DNA from: an uncultured virus (IMG/VR IMGVR_UViG_3300024261_000020)
Taxonomy: Duplodnaviria > Heunggongvirae > Uroviricota > Caudoviricetes
DNA length: 20,000 nt
Direction: 5' to 3' (one strand)
Virus record (IMG/VR): IMGVR_UViG_3300024261_000020
Span: 52,465 to 72,464 of that record
Shown here: in pieces, positions 831 through 13,122 of the stretch
How positions within the stretch are numbered: position 1 is the stretch's first letter
How the letters are laid out: the number at the start of each line of letters is the position of its first letter
The notes under the pieces: generated by a model
Databases searched by the model: none
The model's input: the letters and a program-made list of their open reading frames with translations, nothing else
Told to the model about the DNA's origin: nothing
Made by a program: the position numbers and the translations under genes

Positions 831-1667
831 CTAAAGGTCCTCCATAGTAAGGACCGAAAACCCTGCGGCTCCTTTGTGCCCGCCACCACCGGGGAACGAT
901 TCCGCAATCTTAGCAACATCGACTTCGCCTCTCGACCTTAACGAGAAGACATAATGCTTTCCGTCAAAATTATAAGCAGCCGCTACGCCAAAATCTGTAC
1001 TATCAGCAATCTCCGAAAGGATGTCTCCACGGAATATCACTGCGGTGTTAATGACAGGGAACTCAATTCCTCGGATAGTCATGTAATACATGCCTCTCTT
1101 AATGGAATCACTGATCTCCTTTTTGTAATCAAGAAGAATTCTTCCGCCCTTAATCTGATTCATCAAACCTCTTGAGGTCTCAATGTCTTGAGCAAAATCA
1201 TCCCAGATTTCAAGATTCTTTTCATTAGAATCAAGATTAGCCAAAAGTGCTTCGGCACCCTCTAGCTCCCACTTATGAATATCTCTATCTTCAATGTACT
1301 GAAGAATCTTTGGAACGTCTTCGTCAGGGAAAAGGTATTTCCATGCCAACACCGCGCCTGAGTTATCCATTTTAAATATGGTTTCAAGATTCGGACGAGT
1401 AACGCCCTCCATCGATTCCATAGCCGTAATGTGGTGATCGATAACGACCACGCTCTTAGCTCTTTCAATCACTTCATCCATTTCTGGAAACTTAAAACAG
1501 AAATCTACTATCCAGATATCTCTGTCGTCAATATCATCCGGTATCGGATCACCATGCTTTACTGCACAGTAATCAATACCATATCCGTATTTTTTCCAAA
1601 ATGCATATGCCGCGCCAAAGCCGTCAGGGCAATTGGCATGATATATCAACATACTTCTTTTACTCAT
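831..1667 (-). CDS. DHH/DHHA1-family phosphoesterase (nanoRNase NrnB-like)
   Basis: Motifs YHxxCPDG, VDF, IDHH, IEDRD, SLRS, GGGGHKGAAG; start moved to ATG 1667 (ATGA overlap with purA stop). Confidence 0.9.
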   Translation of the reverse strand: MSKRSMLIYHANCPDGFGAAYAFWKKYGYGIDYCAVKHGDPIPDDIDDRDIWIVDFCFKFPEMDEVIERAKSVVVIDHHITAMESMEGVTRPNLETIFKMDNSGAVLAWKYLFPDEDVPKILQYIEDRDIHKWELEGAEALLANLDSNEKNLEIWDDFAQDIETSRGLMNQIKGGRILLDYKKEISDSIKRGMYYMTIRGIEFPVINTAVIFRGDILSEIADSTDFGVAAAYNFDGKHYVFSLRSRGEVDVAKIAESFPGGGGHKGAAGFSVLTMEDL

Positions 1668-2674
1668 ATATTCTCCGGTGAAGAGGAAAAGATCACTCTC
1701 TTGAGAAGGGAACAATTCTTTCTAAGAAGAGTCTCCAGCACTCCGGTCATATCGGTAATGCTTTCGAACTCAGAAAGCTCGTTCTGAATCCCTCTACAAT
1801 ACATCCTGTAAACTCCGGCCTCTTCCAATACATCACATTTGCTAACAACAACGTGTGTGCATCCAGTCAAATTGATAGACTTAATCAGCATATCAACATC
1901 AAGCCAATTTACCTTTCTTCTGCGCCCTGTGGTCACACCATATTCGGCCCCAATTTCCCCAACCTTTGACAGCATAGGGTCATCAAGTAGTGACGCAGGA
2001 AAAATAGGATCTTCTCCGCTTCTTGTGTCATAAATTTTGGCAGCGCCCCAGATGCTCTTAATGAGCTGTGGTGCGAAGCCTATACTGCAAGCTCCATAGG
2101 CAAGTGTAATGCTTGAGGTCACATAGGGATAATTCCCGTGATCAATATCTAACCAAGCCCCCTGCGCTCCTTCACACAATAATACACCGCTAAGCTGACC
2201 GTCCCATAGGATGTCACTGCCTTCGTAATAGTCTTTGGCAAGAAGACCTGTTCTTGCCGCCTTAGCTGCGTAACTCGGTGCAATACCTTTTGAGGTTGTG
2301 CCAAGCTTCTTTGCAAGGTTCTGCTTGTCAAACTCAATATGCTCGTCTTGAACAATGTGGCAATTCGGAGATACCTTCACAAGAGAGGTATCGAATCCGT
2401 GTCCTGCGAGGTAAGCCAATTCTTTTTCAAATTCTTCTGGATGCAATACACAGCCGGGACCAACGATGGAAAGCATTCCGTGGAATACGCCGCTTGGAAC
2501 AAGGTGTGTTTTGTATTTTTCGCCATTGACGTAGACCGTATGGCCTGCGTTATTGCCTCCGGCCCAGCGAGCCACGGCGTCGTACTGCCCTGTAGCTGCC
2601 AAGGCTGAGGTGATCTTTCCTTTTGCTTCATCGCCCCAAGCGAGCCCCACTACAACATCTGCGGATAACAACAT
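1664..2674 (-). CDS. purA: adenylosuccinate synthetase, short form (336 aa)
   Basis: WGDEAKGK P-loop, GGNNAGHT, HLVPSG, EGAQG..LDIDHGNYPYVTSS, EYGVTTGRRRK.NWLD, SKCD; GGAGGA SD before ATG 2674. Confidence 0.93.
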   Translation of the reverse strand: MLLSADVVVGLAWGDEAKGKITSALAATGQYDAVARWAGGNNAGHTVYVNGEKYKTHLVPSGVFHGMLSIVGPGCVLHPEEFEKELAYLAGHGFDTSLVKVSPNCHIVQDEHIEFDKQNLAKKLGTTSKGIAPSYAAKAARTGLLAKDYYEGSDILWDGQLSGVLLCEGAQGAWLDIDHGNYPYVTSSITLAYGACSIGFAPQLIKSIWGAAKIYDTRSGEDPIFPASLLDDPMLSKVGEIGAEYGVTTGRRRKVNWLDVDMLIKSINLTGCTHVVVSKCDVLEEAGVYRMYCRGIQNELSEFESITDMTGVLETLLRKNCSLLKRVIFSSSPENI

Positions 2675-2693
2675 GTAAATTCCTCCATGAGCG

Positions 2694-2722
2694 ATAATAG
2701 TACCGAAGCGAATACAAGGCAA
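2694..2722 (-). promoter_or_regulatory. candidate sigma70-type promoter for the purA-DHH unit
   Basis: TTGCCT-17 nt-TATTAT on the minus strand, just upstream of the purA SD and downstream of a terminator; same -35 hexamer as the promoter at 16880-16908. Confidence 0.55.
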
Positions 2723-2791
2723 CTACTAAGAGCTACGGACATGCTCCCTTATACCACCCTGTGGGAAATTTGGAAAAATATGCTCTAACGC

Positions 2792-2820
2792 AAACAAGGA
2801 AGGCTAAGCCCTCCTTGTTT
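2792..2820 (-). terminator. intrinsic terminator-like hairpin after the 525-aa gene
   Basis: Minus strand AAACAAGGAGGGC-TTA-GCCTTCCTTGTTT; the one mismatch is a G.U pair on the minus strand. Confidence 0.65.
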
Positions 2821-2840
2821 CTGCTCCATTCTAAATTGGC

Positions 2841-4418
2841 TTAGGAATTTTCTGCTGCCATCTTTAGAAGCTGATCTTGTCTGTCCTCAAAAGCCACGCT
2901 TCTTCTGGTACGTCCTCTGCCAGCTCTATAATCCCTTACTTTCAGAGTAAGGATATCACTGACTGCCTTGTTTTGGAACTCAGACATCTTGTAGGTTGAT
3001 ACGGTTTTGCCACCGCGCTCTTCTGTTCCTTCAGGTGTCTGTGTCTGATCATAACTATCATAAAGCGCAAGACCCTTCTCAACATCGCCTCCGCCTCTGA
3101 AAGAGAGAACAGCTTCTACTGCCGCTGCTGGATCTCCGAGTCTTCTGATTCTTCTTCTGACTCTTGCGTTTCTTAGTCTTAACGGACCTGCGATTCTCGC
3201 TTCTCTTGTCTTAGAAGAAATAGCTCTGAAGTATTCTTCCATTGCCTCTCTTGGAGGCTTACCCTCTTCTGCAATAGGTGGCTCAGTATCCTCAGCAGGC
3301 TTAGCTGCCTCATCTGTTTTTGCGGCTGGCGCTGCGGGAGCAGCCCCTCCTAATAGTCTAAGAACAGCATCTACATTACCTCCAGACGGAATGGTTCTAT
3401 CTGTAACCTGCTTCCTGTACCACTTAACCCATGACAAGAAAGACGCATCATATCCCTGATTAGGGTTGGCTGCCACCCATGCTTCCCAGGCGGCTTTCAT
3501 GCCTTTTGGTCCACCATTTGCGAAGTAACCTTCCCAGCCGGATCTTGGCTTAGCTACCGGAGTTACTCCGCCAGACGGCTGCTCTGCTGGCTTTGCAAGC
3601 ACTCCTTCGCCGGTCGAAACTTCTTCCGCAGAACTTTCCCCATAACGATCTTGCATCCCCCACTCTTTTGCAAGACTCATAAATTCCGCTTTTCTGTCAT
3701 CACTCAGCGCAGGCTTGCGCTGCTTGAGCATTTCCCACATTTTCTCTAATTTGTTGGGTGTAAATTCACCGTCTGGGCGATAAAGCCAATCTGTAATCAT
3801 CCCAAAATCATATACTAATTTTTTATAGATTTCATCTTTTCTCGAATCAGGGGCAGAATTATCAGGTGCAGGAGGTTTTACAGACTCCGAATAGTTTATT
3901 CTATCGTCGGTAAGTGCCAATGCAACAAGTGCTGCGTCCTTTTCTCCAACCTTATCTAACCCTTCGGCTAATTTCTCAATTAAGTGTCTCATGTTTGATT
4001 CCTCTCTCAGGAAGTTGTGACTTTTGTTAGTAAATAAGAAGTCAAAGAATTCTTCATCTGTTTCATCATCTTCTGAGATTCCCTGTTTCTTCTGAGTTTT
4101 GTAATGTTCTGGAGGAAGATCTACGCCCTCCTCTTTAGCTCCAAAAAATTCAGTCTCTTCATCCTCGCCCTGTTCTCTGCTGAGTCCAGAAGGCTGAGGA
4201 CTTCCTGGCAGGTCAAGAACTTCGCCGCCATATAAAGATTGAGGCATACTGGTCAAGCCTAAGGCTTCCTTTTCCATACCTTCCTCCTCAATCTCTTCAT
4301 CATCTGCTTTATTCGGGATTGCAAACATCATCTCCCCTACAGGAACGTGCATGCCTGACGCAGCTTCTTCAGATGGAACTAAATCATCTAATGAAAACCC
4401 CGGCGTCTTTTTCTCCAT
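2841..4418 (-). CDS. hypothetical protein, 525 aa, acidic low-complexity N-terminus and Pro/Ala linkers; probable virion internal protein
   Basis: Long ORF coupled to the upstream gene by TGATG overlap; internal SD+ATG at 3992; function is inference. Confidence 0.8.
   Translation of the reverse strand: MEKKTPGFSLDDLVPSEEAASGMHVPVGEMMFAIPNKADDEEIEEEGMEKEALGLTSMPQSLYGGEVLDLPGSPQPSGLSREQGEDEETEFFGAKEEGVDLPPEHYKTQKKQGISEDDETDEEFFDFLFTNKSHNFLREESNMRHLIEKLAEGLDKVGEKDAALVALALTDDRINYSESVKPPAPDNSAPDSRKDEIYKKLVYDFGMITDWLYRPDGEFTPNKLEKMWEMLKQRKPALSDDRKAEFMSLAKEWGMQDRYGESSAEEVSTGEGVLAKPAEQPSGGVTPVAKPRSGWEGYFANGGPKGMKAAWEAWVAANPNQGYDASFLSWVKWYRKQVTDRTIPSGGNVDAVLRLLGGAAPAAPAAKTDEAAKPAEDTEPPIAEEGKPPREAMEEYFRAISSKTREARIAGPLRLRNARVRRRIRRLGDPAAAVEAVLSFRGGGDVEKGLALYDSYDQTQTPEGTEERGGKTVSTYKMSEFQNKAVSDILTLKVRDYRAGRGRTRRSVAFEDRQDQLLKMAAENS
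4022..4032 (-). promoter_or_regulatory. intragenic candidate late-promoter motif TACTAACAAAA
   Basis: One mismatch to the TACTAATAAAA copies at 5497 and 12163; 29 nt upstream of in-frame ATG 3992, which has SD AGAGAGGA. Confidence 0.55.
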
Positions 4419-5977
4419 CAGTCCCTTCCGAAAGGACCGCTTCCACCTGGGACTGTGAAAAGTGCTGCAAGCCTATCTACGTTAGCAGATGCCTTCTTTC
4501 TTATATCCTCTATTGAGTCCATAGATGCCAGTGTGAAATCTTCAGCCTCTGATGATGATGGGTATGATGATGGGTATCCACCCGGAGACATGACCGTCTC
4601 AGATTCTCTCATTGACTGCTGACCTACTGCCCTTGCCCTGTTAGCAAGATGAGCATAGTTCTGAAGCTCAAGAGCATATCTGAGGAGAGTCTCAGGATCT
4701 TTTAGATCCGAAAGAACATTTCCAGCAATCATTGCCTCAAACCTTTCAACAAGGAATCCCGCACTCTCTGGAGAAAGCTCTGCATCCATAAGCTGACGCA
4801 TTGGCATACCCGGGTCTGCAAGTCTAAACTTCTTCTGAAGTTCAGTACCAAAGTGTCCTGAGTTAACCCAGCCAGCAAACTGAAGCTGTGCTTCTTTCCA
4901 GTCTCTTGCAGGATCACCTGTAGACTCTGTGAGAAGATGTCTCCCTTCGGAAGGGGACTTGTCCCCTTCTGGAACATACTCGGACAATACAGCCCAAGCT
5001 CTTGCATTTTCTCTTGTAATATGTGCGCCAACGGCTCTCTCTGCCCTTGGGTTAGGGGCCGCTCCTGGCCCATAAGTGTAGCTGGAAACTCTGAAGACAC
5101 CTTCGGAAGGAAGGAATTCGTAAGAGTAAGGATCTTTGTCTGGCCTAATCGGACCAAGCTTTCCAACTACTCTTGACTCTGCTGGTTCAGCAACTGGAGC
5201 ATCGCTGAAACCTTCCGGACTGGTCGTAACAACAGGGTTCATAGGCGGCGCAGGAGGAATTGTTCCTCTTAAAAATGGAGAAGACTGTGGAGACACAGGA
5301 GGCTTAGGGACTGGAGGGGCAGCAGGAAATTCTTCCTCTTCGTCCGCCTTTCCAAAAGGCCACCTAGCTCTCTTCTCTATCATCTTGGTTACTTCATCAG
5401 CAGCCTTGGTCTCACCAAAACTGTCCAACTTGTTTGCTAAATCTGCAAGAATGCGCAATGCTGACATGTTATGTCTCCTGTTTCTGTCCAAATTCGTTTT
5501 ATTAGTAGCTCCGAATATACTCATGTCGATATTCAGACTCGCCAAAGATACATCTCCATCACCGGCTCCTGCGCCAGCACCTTTTGATCCACCTTGATTA
5601 GGCTTTCCCTGCTTCCAATTATCTTGTAATGTTAAGATATCAATGTATCCCTGCCTAATAGCAGAAATGAAGAAAAAGTCTCCGCCTGGGCCTGACCTAA
5701 TTTCAGCAACTTCTCTATTATTCTGTTCACCAGAATCTGGTTCCGCTGGGCGCCATGCTCCGGTATCTTTGTTCCCTAATTTGAAACGGTGAACAACGTT
5801 GCCTGCTGAATTACTGAACATGAATGCCATTCGATCATTTAGTCTCGCATTCCTTTCTTCAGTAAACTTTGGAAACATAATTCTCAACGCAAGACGAGCA
5901 GTCGTGCTAATACGGATTTTATTTCCGGTAGCAGGATCTGTCTTCTCTGTAACTTCTAAGTCTGCAAGCTTACGCAC
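4418..5977 (-). CDS. hypothetical protein, ~519 aa, Gly- and Pro-rich linkers; probable virion internal protein
   Basis: ORF track gives TTG at 5992; GTG at 5977 has a GAGG SD and is preferred; internal SD+ATG at 5467. Confidence 0.8.
   Translation of the reverse strand: MRKLADLEVTEKTDPATGNKIRISTTARLALRIMFPKFTEERNARLNDRMAFMFSNSAGNVVHRFKLGNKDTGAWRPAEPDSGEQNNREVAEIRSGPGGDFFFISAIRQGYIDILTLQDNWKQGKPNQGGSKGAGAGAGDGDVSLASLNIDMSIFGATNKTNLDRNRRHNMSALRILADLANKLDSFGETKAADEVTKMIEKRARWPFGKADEEEEFPAAPPVPKPPVSPQSSPFLRGTIPPAPPMNPVVTTSPEGFSDAPVAEPAESRVVGKLGPIRPDKDPYSYEFLPSEGVFRVSSYTYGPGAAPNPRAERAVGAHITRENARAWAVLSEYVPEGDKSPSEGRHLLTESTGDPARDWKEAQLQFAGWVNSGHFGTELQKKFRLADPGMPMRQLMDAELSPESAGFLVERFEAMIAGNVLSDLKDPETLLRYALELQNYAHLANRARAVGQQSMRESETVMSPGGYPSSYPSSSEAEDFTLASMDSIEDIRKKASANVDRLAALFTVPGGSGPFGRD
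5497..5507 (-). promoter_or_regulatory. intragenic candidate late-promoter motif TACTAATAAAA
   Basis: Identical 11-mer to 12163-12173; 29 nt upstream of in-frame ATG 5467, which has SD AGGAG at 7 nt spacing. Confidence 0.6.
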
Positions 5978-6000
5978 GTTCACCTCAATCAAACAAACTA

Positions 6001-6011
6001 TATTATTAGAA
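6001..6011 (-). promoter_or_regulatory. candidate late-promoter variant TTCTAATAATA
   Basis: CTAATA core located between the groEL-unit terminator and the start of the next gene. Confidence 0.4.
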
Positions 6012-6015
6012 ATGA

Positions 6016-6051
6016 CAAAAGCCCGACAGCTAAATTGCTATCAGGCTTTTG
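6016..6051 (-). terminator. intrinsic terminator after the groEL unit
   Basis: Minus strand AAAAGCCTGATAGC-AATTTA-GCTGTCGGGCTTTT; 10-bp stem whose two mismatches are G.U only on the minus strand, followed by a U-tract. Confidence 0.8.
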
Positions 6052-6066
6052 AACTATTTGCTAAGG

Positions 6067-6351
6067 TCAATATTCTTCAATATCAATGTAGTATGCTATG
6101 ACCTTTAAGAAATCTCTTGCTGATCTAATCTCTACATGCTTTGGGGCTGCCTTGAGTTCATTGCGAATGTTGTCAACTTCTGTGTCGTTTAAGACCTCTT
6201 CGATTGCTTCAAGTCGAATTCCGCAAATCTCCCCATTTGGAAATACATTAAGTGCTTCCATAATCTCAGGGTGCTCTTCCAATGAGAAATGCTTATTGTT
6301 CTCGAACTTCTGAAGATTGAGTCCTGCATTGACCAGCAAAAAATCATCCAT
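6067..6351 (-). CDS. hypothetical protein, 94 aa, acidic, translationally coupled to groEL
   Basis: TAATG overlap with the groEL stop; no GroES motifs. Confidence 0.75.
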   Translation of the reverse strand: MDDFLLVNAGLNLQKFENNKHFSLEEHPEIMEALNVFPNGEICGIRLEAIEEVLNDTEVDNIRNELKAAPKHVEIRSARDFLKVIAYYIDIEEY

Positions 6352-7952
6352 TATCTCTCCGTTTCAGTTTCGTAAATTGCAACCTCTGTCGTCAGCAGTG
6401 TTCCACTGGCTGATGCAGCATGCTCCAAAGAGCTTCTTACAACTTTACAAGGATCCATAATCCCATTGTCTAACATGTTAGTTACAAACTCAAGATTAAG
6501 AGCATCATAACCGCTTGGCTCATCAGAATTCAAAATCTGCTCAACAAAATCATCAGCACCAGTGACTCCGGCGTTATCAAGAATCTGATAAAATGGGGCC
6601 TTAACTGCCTCTCTGATAATTCCAATGCCGGCCACCTCTTCAGGAAGAAGGCCATCTGTCTCAATCTCGTCAAGGACTGGAAGGGCATGAATTAGTGCGG
6701 AGCCACCACCGGGAACTACACCTTCTTCAAGCGCTGAACGTACAGCGTTGATAGCATCTTCCACTCTGTCCTTTCTCTCTCTCATTTCAGCTTCAGATTT
6801 TCCGCCGACCTTAAAAATCGCTGCCGAGCCAGTGATTCTTGCAAGTCTGCTTTTTAGAATCTCAAGCTGATAATCATGTTGACCACCAGCAGTAAGCTGC
6901 TCTTTAATCTGAATGGCTCTCGCCTCAACATCTTTGGGATCTGCCCCACCTTCAATTATAGTTGTGCTGTTCTGGCTTACGATGACCCTGCGTGCGGTCC
7001 CAAGATCAGCAACTGTTGCTCCGTCAAGACCGATTCCGTCATTATCACAGAACATCTTTCCGCCAGAAACAATGGCAAGGTCTTCGAGGAATGCACGTCT
7101 CGAATCACCAAACCCAGGAGAACGAACTACCGCGATTCTAATATTTCCCTGAATCTTGTTGTAGACAAGATGAGCAATAGCTTCATCTGTGATCTGCTTT
7201 ACAACCAAAAGAACGGGTTTGGATTGCTCGGCTAATTCCTCAAAAATTTCCCTTACATCAGTGATGCTGGAAATCGCCCCATCATAAGGAAATATAAGAC
7301 AATCATCAAATTCTGCCGTAAATCTTGCAGAATTTGTCACGAAATGCTCAGAGGTCCATCCCTTATCGAGCTTGATACCTTCCGAGTAGAACACCTCAGT
7401 TGATCTTCCAGTCGCTTCCTCAACGGAAATGACTCCGTGCTGACCAACTGCCGCGATAGCTTCTGCGATTTTGGCACCGAGAACCTTATCATTATTTGCA
7501 GAGATTACAGCAACACTTCTCATGCTTGCTTCATCGCTTACAGATGCAGATAAGCCCTTCAGTCTACTTGAAAGTTTTGTCACAGCAAGGTCAATGCCGC
7601 GTCTAAGAAGAACAGGGTTGAGTCCCTCTTCGTCTACAAGAACTAAGCCTTTGGAGTAGATTGCCTGAGCGAGAACAGTTGCAGTTGTTGTCCCGTCTCC
7701 TGCCGCGCTATTTGCTGCGGCTGCAACCGAACGCACCAACTGTGCTCCCATGTTCTGAATTCTATCATCCAATCTGATCTGTCGAGCTACAGTCACACCA
7801 TCTTTTGTAATAAGCGGGTGACCCCATTCCCTTTCGATAGCAACGTTTCTTCCTCGCGGACCAAGAGTGGCCTTAACGGCGTTTGCTAAAATATCTACAC
7901 CTTGAAGCATTTCTTTTCTTGCTTCAGGTCCAATCTTTACAACTTTTCCCAT
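6351..7952 (-). CDS. groEL: group I chaperonin GroEL (phage-type, no GGM tail)
   Basis: TLGPRGRNV, ITKDGVTVA, AGDGTTTATVLAQAI, PGFGD.R, KDRVEDA, GVVPGGG, GIMDP.KV; GGAG SD. Confidence 0.97.
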   Translation of the reverse strand: MGKVVKIGPEARKEMLQGVDILANAVKATLGPRGRNVAIEREWGHPLITKDGVTVARQIRLDDRIQNMGAQLVRSVAAAANSAAGDGTTTATVLAQAIYSKGLVLVDEEGLNPVLLRRGIDLAVTKLSSRLKGLSASVSDEASMRSVAVISANNDKVLGAKIAEAIAAVGQHGVISVEEATGRSTEVFYSEGIKLDKGWTSEHFVTNSARFTAEFDDCLIFPYDGAISSITDVREIFEELAEQSKPVLLVVKQITDEAIAHLVYNKIQGNIRIAVVRSPGFGDSRRAFLEDLAIVSGGKMFCDNDGIGLDGATVADLGTARRVIVSQNSTTIIEGGADPKDVEARAIQIKEQLTAGGQHDYQLEILKSRLARITGSAAIFKVGGKSEAEMRERKDRVEDAINAVRSALEEGVVPGGGSALIHALPVLDEIETDGLLPEEVAGIGIIREAVKAPFYQILDNAGVTGADDFVEQILNSDEPSGYDALNLEFVTNMLDNGIMDPCKVVRSSLEHAASASGTLLTTEVAIYETETER

Positions 7953-9376: not shown

Positions 9377-9721
9377 CTATCTATTCCATTCTGCGAATGT
9401 TGTCCTAATCTCTTCTGCAAAATCAATTCTAATCAATCTTACACCAGGGACCGTAAGCAGAATTTGTTTTGGTCCTTGAGTTTCCTCCAAGAAAATGTCC
9501 AGCCATTCCTCCGCACTCTTCTTGGTTCTGAAGATATCCGAAAAGATATCTTCTGACGGGATATGGATAATGCTCCATTGCCAATTAGGCTGGGCTCCCG
9601 AGTCTTTTAACTTGTATTTAGCTATTCCGAATACTGGAAAGTCCTTTACAACATAACCATCAACGGTTTTACTGTGACCATCCACTATCATCATTTCATC
9701 TTTTTCAAACTCTATGTTCAT
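9377..9721 (-). CDS. hypothetical protein, 114 aa
   Basis: ATGA overlap with the upstream gene; ends in TAG 10 nt before the next ATG. Confidence 0.75.
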   Translation of the reverse strand: MNIEFEKDEMMIVDGHSKTVDGYVVKDFPVFGIAKYKLKDSGAQPNWQWSIIHIPSEDIFSDIFRTKKSAEEWLDIFLEETQGPKQILLTVPGVRLIRIDFAEEIRTTFAEWNR

Positions 9722-10668
9722 TGAAGCAATCCGAGGTCTGTCCCCTCGAATGGCGAACCTTCGCCTGTAAGCTCTGCGATAATGATTCTTAGAAGCGCTT
9801 GCTTAATTAGATCATCATACTCTTCTTTCTTGAATTCGAATCTCAAAGCCCTATTCTTATCCCTTTGTTCTGACACCAAACCATCAATTTTCGAATCGAG
9901 GATTTGTCTCAATCTTGCAACTGTAGAGTGCAGCCTTCGAAGTTGCATCCCACCGTCCTTATCTTCCTTATAGAAACGATCGATTGCGGTGTCAAGATGC
10001 TTTAGCTTAGAATCAAGTTCGGGATCATTCTCTGCCATTCCTGGCGTTAACTTAGGTCTGTCTCCGCCATGAGTAGAGGTAAACTCTCCTGCGCCAGTTT
10101 CGTCAATCTTAACCCTTCTGATATGTTCTGGTCGCCCTTGCGCACCTTCCATAATTCTTGAAGCATTCGCAATCACAGACTGCTCAGCCTGCGGATCCAA
10201 TATCATAAACTTTGTTCCAGATGGTAAAGATGAGTAATCTGGTGGAATCTCAAGCATTGGTTGGTTAGCCTCAAAACGATGCACCTTACCAGGGTTGAAC
10301 ACTGCTGCTCTGAGCGCCGCTGTAGCTGGTGTGTCCAAATACCCGTACTCAGTCTTAACTCCAAAGTATCTTTCATAAGGAGTTGCCTTTCCTGGGTCAA
10401 GGACATATAGGTGAGGAAAACCTTTTCTTCTTGCTACCTCTGGAATCGTGATCCAATTGGAATTATTAGACATAGCGATTGCCTGATTGATATCTTTCGG
10501 CCTAAACCTTGTGGTGAAGTCTTCCATAAAGACTTCATGGTTTCCGAACTGACCCTCATCATAAGGGAGGAAATCGCCCATGAAAGAGCTTACATCTTCA
10601 TCATCATCAGTCTCTTGAGCAGCTTTGATCAAGTCCTCTAAAAGGGATTTTCTAATCTTTCTATCCAT
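9718..10668 (-). CDS. hypothetical protein, 316 aa; possible late/virion protein
   Basis: GGAG SD; TACTAATA upstream; N-terminal LIKAA followed by an acidic stretch. Confidence 0.8.
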   Translation of the reverse strand: MDRKIRKSLLEDLIKAAQETDDDEDVSSFMGDFLPYDEGQFGNHEVFMEDFTTRFRPKDINQAIAMSNNSNWITIPEVARRKGFPHLYVLDPGKATPYERYFGVKTEYGYLDTPATAALRAAVFNPGKVHRFEANQPMLEIPPDYSSLPSGTKFMILDPQAEQSVIANASRIMEGAQGRPEHIRRVKIDETGAGEFTSTHGGDRPKLTPGMAENDPELDSKLKHLDTAIDRFYKEDKDGGMQLRRLHSTVARLRQILDSKIDGLVSEQRDKNRALRFEFKKEEYDDLIKQALLRIIIAELTGEGSPFEGTDLGLLQ

Positions 10669-10709: not shown

Positions 10710-10717
10710 TATTAGTA
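10710..10717 (-). promoter_or_regulatory. candidate late-promoter motif TACTAATA
   Basis: Intergenic, immediately after the previous stop, 41 nt upstream of ATG 10668. Confidence 0.55.
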
Positions 10718-12162: not shown

Positions 12163-12173
12163 TACTAATAAAA
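12163..12173 (+). promoter_or_regulatory. candidate late-promoter motif TACTAATAAAA for the only plus-strand gene
   Basis: Lies in the 34-nt divergent gap, 22 nt upstream of GTG 12196 (SD AGGAG). Confidence 0.6.
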
Positions 12174-12195
12174 CCTTTATGCTTAGGAGCAGTCA

Positions 12196-13122
12196 GTGGA
12201 CAAAGAACTTAAATACCTTATTGATATCCTAAAAGAAGCCAACCTTAACCGCGAAGCCGACGAGCTTACGCACTTGCTAATCAAGTCTGCAAATATCGTT
12301 GGCGGAGACCTTGAGGCGTGGAAAGCAGTTCTCAATGAGATCGAACGTCCTCACGAAACTCAGGTGCAAACTAAAGCTATAGTATACCTCGTTGAAGCTG
12401 CAAAAAACCTTAAAGATGCAGCGGCGCTAAAAGAAGCTGACCCTGAAGATATTAAAGATTCTGCTGAGAAGCTTAGGGTTGTAATGTCAAATATGAATAT
12501 GACATCAGAGGATTTCTTTGTTAAAGAAGCAGGAGCTATGGCTCTGCTCGGCAAAGCTGCTCCACTATTCAGTTTCTTAATAGCCATTAAGAATGTGTAT
12601 TATGGCTTTCAGGAATTCAAAAAAGTACAGGGTAAATCTGGTGACGTTGGCCTTAACTGGATGGACACACTACAGCCTGCAAAAATGATGAGCAAAGCTA
12701 AAGAGTATTCCGAGTCTCCAGTCGAACTCAAAACCGTTGTAGAACTTACAAAATCTGGCAGCTTACTGTGGGACGAAGGAATTTCTTTTGTCGTCAATCT
12801 TCTTGACGGGTTTAAAGATATCCTCCTATTGATGCCGACAGTATTGGGATATTTCGCAGGTCTTGGAATTGGAGGCTTGACAGTCTCCGCAATAGACTTT
12901 GGTATCTCTATGCTTCTATGGCTCGCTGTTGAAGCTCCTGCCGAGAAGTTCATGAAGACTCTTTATCTGCCAAACCTTGAATTCATTACCGGTACAGCAC
13001 AAATGGCAATTGCTTCCCTTATTGAGCAGCAGGCGCCTACGCCTGATGATTCGGAAGAATTGCCATTAGCCGATGAAGATGAGAACTTTGACGCCGAAGC
13101 TTGGTGGGCTTCAATCGCGTAA
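12196..13122 (+). CDS. hypothetical protein, 308 aa, with shared N-terminal helical module and a C-terminal hydrophobic hairpin
   Basis: Fills the gap between minus-strand genes; AGGAG SD; hydrophobic segment ILLLMPTVLGYFAGLGIGGLTVSAIDFGISMLLWLAV. Confidence 0.85.
   Translation: MDKELKYLIDILKEANLNREADELTHLLIKSANIVGGDLEAWKAVLNEIERPHETQVQTKAIVYLVEAAKNLKDAAALKEADPEDIKDSAEKLRVVMSNMNMTSEDFFVKEAGAMALLGKAAPLFSFLIAIKNVYYGFQEFKKVQGKSGDVGLNWMDTLQPAKMMSKAKEYSESPVELKTVVELTKSGSLLWDEGISFVVNLLDGFKDILLLMPTVLGYFAGLGIGGLTVSAIDFGISMLLWLAVEAPAEKFMKTLYLPNLEFITGTAQMAIASLIEQQAPTPDDSEELPLADEDENFDAEAWWASIA

Follow-up and report, generated by a model that had tools for sequence, protein, structure and literature searches.

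Long and nested short protein forms predicted from promoter-like motifs and start signals within two adjacent genes of an uncultured marine megaphage

Does a phage gene that carries a promoter-like motif, a Shine–Dalgarno (SD) sequence and an ATG inside its own reading frame encode one protein or two? The question is posed by two adjacent minus-strand genes, here called the 4418 gene and the 2841 gene, in a 20,000-nucleotide stretch of DNA from an uncultured virus (IMG/VR record IMGVR_UViG_3300024261_000020; the whole stretch is referred to below as the window). The window forms the end of a 72,464-bp contig (G000), and its reverse complement falls inside a 395,127-bp IMG/VR virus record (G001) that is rated 100% complete. 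The original prediction, made from the letters of the window, held that each of the two genes yields a long form and an independently transcribed C-terminal short form, or else arose by fusion through a leader. The reading that we favor, with a probability of about 0.6, is that each gene is a nested pair of in-frame genes, one specifying the long form and the other a C-terminal short form; comparison with homologs lends this strong support in the case of the 4418 gene and moderate support in that of the 2841 gene.

The long open reading frame (ORF) of the 4418 gene (P0002; 4418..5992, minus strand) has 524 codons counted from TTG 5992, and the public gene call starts at GTG 5977 (P0004, 519 aa). 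Within this frame, TACTAATAAAA (5507-5497), read as (A)TNK(T), lies 29 nt before the in-frame ATG 5467, and an SD sequence, AGGAG (5475..5479, minus strand; Arg-Arg codons AGG AGA), lies 7 nt before the same ATG. The predicted short isoform (4418..5467, minus strand) would share the frame and stop of the long form and comprise 349 aa. The long ORF of the 2841 gene (P0001; 2841..4418, minus strand; 525 aa from ATG 4418) has a matching arrangement, in which a C variant of the motif, TACTAACAAAA (4032-4022), read in frame as (F)TNK(S), again lies 29 nt before an in-frame ATG, at 3992. A purine-rich SD sequence, GAGAGAGGA (4000..4008, minus strand), ends 7 nt before this ATG and includes AGAGAGGA at 4007-4000, and the predicted short isoform (2841..3992, minus strand; 383 aa) is identical to the public gene call P0009. 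Both internal starts thus have an SD sequence at working distance (AGGAG-N7-ATG 5467 and GAGAGAGGA-N7-ATG 3992), and the positions, spacings and lengths agree with those of the original prediction.

ATG 4418 of the 2841 gene overlaps the stop codon of the upstream 4418 gene by one base (TGATG), and terminator-like hairpins on the minus strand stand just upstream of the two-gene unit (6016..6051; 15 pairs plus a T-run) and just past the 2841 gene (2799..2814). RNA around both internal starts folds no better than shuffled sequences (z = +0.94 and +1.23), with no sequestering hairpin, and both cassettes sit in predicted disordered linkers (predicted local distance difference test score, pLDDT, of ~26 in P0002 and 38-45 in P0001). 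A genome-wide scan for TACTAAYA, which the original prediction had proposed as a check, found five sites deep in same-strand genes in 395 kb; only two of the five have an SD sequence and an in-frame ATG, and these are the cassettes of the 4418 and 2841 genes. The P0001 and P0002 families have nothing in common but a helical module directly behind the internal start (overall hhalign probability 0.5%), and their leaders are little alike beyond the motif; the cassette is therefore not a recent duplicate.

An internal start with its own signals could also reflect a stop codon lost through sequencing or assembly error, the short forms then being ordinary separate genes. This is extremely unlikely, because the two-gene region (3152 nt) is identical in two further assemblies, a third is identical over the 1875 nt it covers, and every full-length homolog from other samples has an unbroken frame, with no stop before the internal ATG. 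Since the frames are continuous and the N-terminal parts are conserved as protein, the comparison indicates that the long forms of both genes are real.

Among close homologs of the 4418 gene (41-100% identity), the frame is open in five of five, the residues ATNK, R172 and M176 are invariant in all five, and K and M are always separated by exactly 10 residues. A profile search of a representative library of 1.84 billion proteins returned a wider family of 167 matches. Here the internal Met (Met176, or M169 in the numbering of the wider alignment) is invariant in 34 of 34 homologs, on par with the residues H, E and H of an HExxH motif. In a table of 88 module occurrences, compiled from representatives at 50% identity, a Met stands within 13 residues before the module in 69 and is the first residue of the protein in three. 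The dipeptide TN occurs upstream of the module in 46 of the 88, with a TN-Met gap of 11-12 residues in 30 of these 46. In 42 of the 46, TN is followed by I (17), K (13), N (8), T (3) or M (1), chemically unlike residues whose codons all begin with A, against a background of ~0.25-0.29. Of 66 sequences, 50 have R (27) or G (23) at position -4 from the Met, and 55 have S, R, G, E or D at position -3. Where a protein contains a second copy of the module (n = 5), that copy never has TN, and four of the five lack the Met. What the tolerated residues have in common is codon bases and not chemistry, so the nucleotide signals can be seen from the protein alignments alone.

DNA was available for three loci of the family, namely this phage, an independent relative (G002) and a second relative locus (L065). 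The corresponding stretches read GCT ACT AAT AAA ... AGG AGA CAT AAC ATG in this phage, ACT ACT AAT ATT ... GGG AGA CAA TTA ATG in G002 and GCT ACT AAT ATT ... CGG AGT GCT AAT ATG in L065. TACTAATA is read at all three loci, and GGAG-N7-ATG is kept at all three though the encoded residues are RR, GR and RS and the phages span 34-44% GC. Given the residues and the codon usage, the chance per locus is 0.06-0.14 for TACTAAT and ~0.05-0.18 for the GG|AG junction. Because the motif and GGAG-N7-ATG are fixed while the encoded residues differ, the 4418 cassette appears to be conserved by selection on nucleotides rather than on the peptide, and by the same comparison it is old. The original prediction had named conservation of the motif, SD sequence and Met in homologs as a decisive point, and for the 4418 family it is borne out at the nucleotide level.

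These data bear directly on an explanation at the protein level, in which 'ATN...[GR][SR]xxM' would be a conserved peptide, for instance a maturation cleavage site or a hinge between the HExxH domain and the module, its likeness to a promoter and an SD sequence being coincidental. Additional conserved spacer residues in a subfamily (NKF[DE]K.GSF.M) fit this explanation, and the HExxH domains just upstream could cut there. However, the tolerated residues are alike in codon bases, not in chemistry (I, K, N or T after TN; R or G at -4), synonymous sites are fixed at the three loci, and the region is predicted to be disordered. In addition, an unrelated neighbor protein has the same DNA cassette, and TACTAAT is independently the top upstream 7-mer of the genome, as described below. 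We rate a purely protein-level motif as very improbable.

The architecture of the family indicates how the 4418 gene acquired its present front part. A typical relative starts at profile position 137 and consists of the HExxH domain, 'SVATN', a short spacer, the Met, the module, a variable region and a C-terminal PFGR(D). P0002 matches the family profile over positions 286-640, from the cassette to the C-terminus. The HExxH motif, the mark of a zinc metallopeptidase-like domain, occurs in P0006-8 and does not vary in 34 of 34 wider homologs. It is absent from P0002 and its closest relative P0005, and in these two proteins a small N-terminal domain is fused where the HExxH domain was lost. No Pfam peptidase family matched the HExxH-bearing proteins P0006 or P0021. 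The N-terminal domain of P0002 (residues ~11-125; 5618..5962, minus strand), which would be part of the long form only, has a predicted alpha/beta fold. In an AlphaFold2 (AF2) model built from a 5-sequence alignment (mean pLDDT 56.5), this domain (11-125, pLDDT 70-84) and a C-terminal domain (287-460) are confident, and a very-low-confidence stretch (126-179) holds the cassette. A PDB-wide fold search with the N-terminal domain returned weak matches to MqsR, two RelE proteins and a contact-dependent inhibition (CDI) toxin (Z = 5.9-6.8) and a top hit at Z = 7.8, all inside the grey zone of the tool (the RelE/MqsR-like matches span Z = 6.2-7.8), and a search of BFVD gave nothing convincing (TM score <= 0.13).

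The first ~120 residues of the profile mostly occur as a stand-alone protein of 115-155 aa among relatives. Relatives encode this domain in a small gene of its own that immediately precedes the HExxH gene, and at a distant TARA locus (L035), otherwise too diverged, it is a separate 155-aa gene (tblastn E = 2e-9). Because the domain stands alone in most relatives, the comparison indicates that a fusion did occur in the history of P0002, in agreement with the fusion that the original prediction had offered as one of two possibilities. A further explanation takes this to its end and holds that an upstream ORF ran through a leader into the downstream gene, so that motif, SD sequence and ATG are dead and only long proteins are made. 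The separate N-terminal gene in most relatives, G002 and L035 included, is as expected from such a relic, and the residues across the cassette do resemble a translated AT-rich leader. A dead leader would decay, yet the Met is kept in 34 of 34 homologs and the SD and motif nucleotides persist in phages of 34-44% GC; moreover, the cassette also lies inside the ancestral HExxH-containing gene, where no N-domain fusion took place. We therefore hold a mere relic of fusion to be quite improbable.

We examined TACTAAT as an upstream element across the genome by scanning for 7-mers enriched 13-80 nt upstream of starts in G001, using 494 crude gene calls (longest ORFs, with the start picked by SD and the motif ignored). 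TACTAAT ranks first, occurring in 17 upstream regions vs. 1.63 expected, and the next-ranked words ACTAATA, CTAATAA and CTACTAA overlap it. The zone 18-45 nt before a start contains 13 of the 42 copies in G001 (0.74 expected) and 9 of the 77 copies in G002 (1.18 expected), the latter including those before the orthologs of P0003 (TACTAAT 25 nt upstream) and of another motif-led G001 gene. Single-base variants of TACTAAT show little or no enrichment upstream of G001 genes. For this reason TTCTAAT, 27 nt before GTG 5977, cannot count as a copy of the motif and was rejected (2 of 86 in the zone vs. 1.51 expected). The possibility that the enrichment merely reflects the TAA of the motif serving as the stop codon of the preceding gene was also rejected (0 of 28 sites in the two phages). 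These results mark the motif as a true upstream element that is conserved in this phage clade.

The position of the motif suggests what it does. At six of the 28 motif sites a divergent neighbor gene lies close upstream. Five of these six sites have more than 10 kb without any same-strand gene, and at four the 5' end of the neighbor is just 1-35 nt before the motif. Since such strand-switched units need their own promoter at the head and have no room for anything else, TACTAAT(A) behaves like a -10-only promoter, and a phage sigma factor probably mediates its use. Alignment of 18 TACTAAY sites 14-53 nt before SD-picked starts showed no conserved columns farther upstream, and a consensus scan of 2600-6400 for sigma-70 -35/-10 pairs (TTGACA- and TATAAT-like, 16-18 nt apart) lists none at 5507 or 4032. 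G001 and G002 each encode a Sigma70_r2 protein, region 2 being the sole sigma region detected in that of G001, and an RNA polymerase beta subunit was not found in G001 or G002. A literature search gave nothing relevant to TACTAAT as a phage promoter at the level of titles and abstracts.

The sigma factor gene lies outside the window (G001 361194-361961, equal to G000 33034-33801) and is the third gene of a unit headed by a fourth exact copy of TACTAATAAAA. This copy is intergenic and, as in the two internal cassettes, stands 29 nt before an ATG, which is the first of the unit; a PD-(D/E)XK/Cas4-like nuclease gene sits between. The sigma factor could thus drive its own operon. Another TACTAAT copy within the window (10711..10717, minus strand) stands 42 nt before ATG 10668, with GGAG 8 nt before that ATG; the gene behind it (9718-10668) encodes 316 aa with an acidic N-terminus.

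The 2841 gene was compared with seven homologs and with an eighth that is truncated where its contig ends. Conservation is highest over the N-terminal 128 residues, in the seven homologs and in P0016. FFDFL is kept, Met143 is invariant in seven of seven, and FTN[KN] is present in five of eight. Residues 1-138 of P0001 (window 4001-4418, minus strand) are strongly conserved and form an acidic region that is predicted to be disordered; with SGMHxPxGE, DEETEFFGA and EEFFDFLF, the region resembles a string of short linear motifs. Because the public call for this gene is the short form, the 426 bases upstream of it (3993-4418), which encode the best-conserved part of the family, are unannotated. 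The internal start of the 2841 gene is plausible on this evidence. Its promoter part is doubtful, because the motif there is TACTAAC, a word without enrichment upstream of genes (in the zone, 1 of 21 copies vs. 0.37 expected in G001 and 0 of 27 in G002), because three of the eight homologs (FNKN, YSKN and YANK) cannot encode the ACTAA core, and because no DNA of a relative was found, G002 having no homolog. The nested arrangement that the original prediction proposed equally for both genes thus holds by comparison for the 4418 gene and is weaker for the 2841 gene.

Besides these features of the 2841 gene, several observations weigh against the nested-pair reading. The exact 11-mer is not significantly overrepresented in the window (three matches vs. 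0.91 expected; 16 of 200 shuffles reach three), and the 395,127-bp genome has four copies vs. two for the reversed control. The motif statistics depend on crude gene calls, and members of a family are related sequences, so that sequence counts are not independent events. No Met precedes the module in 19 of the 88 occurrences. The distance from motif to ATG is 48 nt in G002 and 45 nt in L065, at or beyond the edge of the usual 18-45 nt, and the spacer residues conserved in part of the 4418 family suggest some selection at the protein level. Finally, the module at L035 has neither the motif nor a well-placed SD sequence before it, which indicates that the cassette belongs to the nearer members of the 4418 family.

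Some of these points would be explained if the internal SD sequence and ATG alone work, with the short forms made by internal initiation on the long mRNA and TACTAAY being a relic or serving another role as nucleic acid. Conservation of the SD sequence and Met is the strongest signal of all, the 2841 site has the unenriched C variant, the motif-ATG spacing drifts in relatives, and the two genes lie between the terminator-like hairpins as one unit. Against this explanation, TACTAATA is kept at synonymous sites at the three loci, the residue after TN is limited to A-first codons in 42 of 46 cases, and TACTAAT heads strand-switched units where a promoter is needed. We consider an origin of the short forms by translation signals alone unlikely.

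The nested-pair reading can be set out as a sequence of steps. An upstream start, GTG 5977 or TTG 5992, would give the long protein of ~520 aa from the 4418 gene, and the long form of the 2841 gene would be made from ATG 4418, coupled to the stop of the 4418 gene. Inside each frame, TACTAAT(A) would act as a -10-only promoter-like element, probably recognized by host polymerase carrying the phage sigma factor. Behind it would lie a short, unstructured leader, the SD sequence 7 nt before the ATG, and the helical module. Transcripts begun at this element, probably together with internal initiation on the long mRNA, would yield the 349-aa and 383-aa short forms. The short form would then be the constant unit, and the front part would vary, with an HExxH domain, the N-terminal alpha/beta domain, the two together or nothing tethered to it. 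We infer from sequence that the element is active as a promoter, that the internal ATG is used, and what roles the sigma factor and the proteins have.

The helical module that opens the short forms extends over 5366..5467 (minus strand) in the 4418 gene (MSALRILADLANKLDSFGETKAADEV...), where the AF2 model has a low-confidence helical hairpin (residues 165-209). According to the original prediction, the same module is N-terminal in the product of the gene at 12196 and the same 11-mer precedes that gene. The 11-mer is indeed present (TACTAATAAAA, 12163..12173, plus strand), but its spacing to GTG 12196 is 22 nt, not 29; an SD sequence, AGGAG, stands at 12185-12189, and the motif is 1 nt from the 5' end of the divergent neighbor. 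The gene (12196..13122, plus strand) is the lone plus-strand gene here and encodes P0003, a protein of 308 aa that opens with the module. In profile-profile comparison with nine N-terminal modules, the internal module of the 2841 family had a match probability of 79% (E = 1.6e-5, Met aligned to Met) and that of the 4418 family one of 62% (E = 7.4e-5). A plain hidden Markov model (HMM) built from six N-terminal modules missed both internal ones, and the proposal of a shared module therefore has moderate support.

Modules of this type (h..L..L...LG/N...EA..V, ~30 aa) form the N-terminal start of at least 9-12 proteins per phage in G001 and G002. Most of the genes that open with it follow TACTAAT or the variant ACTATTAT, 25-33 nt upstream. 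They include window 12196-12290 (plus strand), G001 87956, 91470, 119536, 138153, 198707, 223347 (minus), 245683, 261900 and 288175 (minus), and G002 4821 (minus), 17563 (minus), 208048 (minus), 231267 and 253997. No module-bearing protein had a Pfam match at E <= 0.01. The module may resemble the SAP/HeH-type helix-turn-helix motif, and it might be an address or docking element.

Nested genes that share a frame are known from other phages. In T7 gene 4A/4B, phiX174 A/A*, lambda C/Nu3 and Mu I/Z, internal initiation yields in-frame nested products; in T4 gene 49, nested proteins are expressed from different promoters; and T4 late promoters are -10-only elements, TATAAATA, read by gp55. Since such parallels exist, the mechanism proposed here is of a known kind; what is new is the family, the motif and the codon-level signature. 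As in the T7, phiX174, lambda and Mu pairs, the two predicted forms would have one frame, an internal SD sequence and ATG, and a common C-terminus. The long forms in lambda and Mu join a protease to the C-terminal unit, much as relatives of P0002 tether an HExxH domain. Unlike the proteins of those four pairs, the present ones are unrelated to them (no Pfam or PHROGs match) and are not encoded in a recognizable head module. They also differ in that a promoter-like element lies in frame and the same cassette occurs in two unrelated neighbor genes. As at T4 late promoters, a short A/T-rich element without a -35 partner stands near SD-led starts and the phage encodes a sigma-like factor; TACTAATA matches the T4 consensus at 6 of 8 positions, and in contrast to T4 its promoter activity is a prediction. 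As in T4 gene 49, a promoter inside the gene would decide which nested product is made. Within the HExxH...NPFPGGE...module...PFGR(D) megaphage family, P0002 is a member from the cassette to the C-terminus, with the invariant Met and module in common, and P0002 and P0005 differ from most members in lacking the HExxH domain and in having, fused in front, the small N-terminal domain that is a separate gene elsewhere.

A broader reading, which we put forward as a tentative possibility, is that uncultured marine megaphages possess a portable cassette for expression and addressing, consisting of a -10-only TACTAATA promoter recognized by way of a phage sigma factor, a short GGAG-N7-ATG leader of fixed length and a helical N-terminal module of ~30 aa that marks co-regulated proteins, with exchangeable N-terminal cargo, and that it is held at the codon level across >150 proteins. 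If so, embedding the cassette in frame would turn one gene into a tethered-enzyme long form and a free short form, with the module possibly serving assembly or packaging and the cargo being an HExxH domain, a RelE-like domain or an acidic disordered tail. Should short and long forms be confirmed, the family would extend to new domains the protease/scaffold logic of small phages, in which a free unit is made beside an enzyme-tethered one. For this clade of uncultured phages of 330-400 kb, the analysis provides a promoter motif and a regulon that can be tested, and the two genes would be a clean example of transcription and translation signals under selection within a coding frame. Public gene calls in such phages can miss either isoform.

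One strand carries nearly all genes. The window encodes a GroEL-type chaperonin (6351-7952, minus strand) directly upstream of the two-gene unit and an adenylosuccinate synthetase (1664-2722, minus strand) directly downstream of it, together with a DHH phosphoesterase, a DNA methylase, a metallophosphatase, a 2OG-Fe(II) oxygenase and a SpoU methylase. Because of the size of the record, the one-strand gene layout and this gene content, we take the window to be a piece of an uncultured marine megaphage genome. G002 is a complete IMG/VR phage of 335,169 bp and 34% GC that was found via the protein profile of the wider family, and L065, in a 332-kb phage, was found with a back-translated NPFPGGE pattern (23 loci matched, of which one was a true relative).

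Other searches added little. A tblastn search of cultured phages with both proteins gave no relative, IMG/VR searches with single proteins or with alignments A1 and A2 returned the same phage only, and a profile scan of genome contigs with A2 gave no match. The matches of a metagenome scan were the locus itself and L035. Pfam and PHROGs contain no family for P0001, P0002, P0003, P0006, P0021 or P0047, and a Protein Atlas search yielded no usable match.

The upstream-enriched 7-mers of G001 also include the tRNA T-loop words GGTTCGA and GGGTTCG, suggesting many tRNA genes. Two motif-led genes of G001 encode HNH endonucleases, and a 1069-aa motif-led G001 protein has a sub-threshold C-terminal match to a tail sheath. 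The most enriched upstream 7-mers of G002 differ from TACTAAT and are overlapping words of a longer repeat, GTTAACCGATGAACAG..., GAAGCTGGTG and ATGGATGTA (L038-L054).

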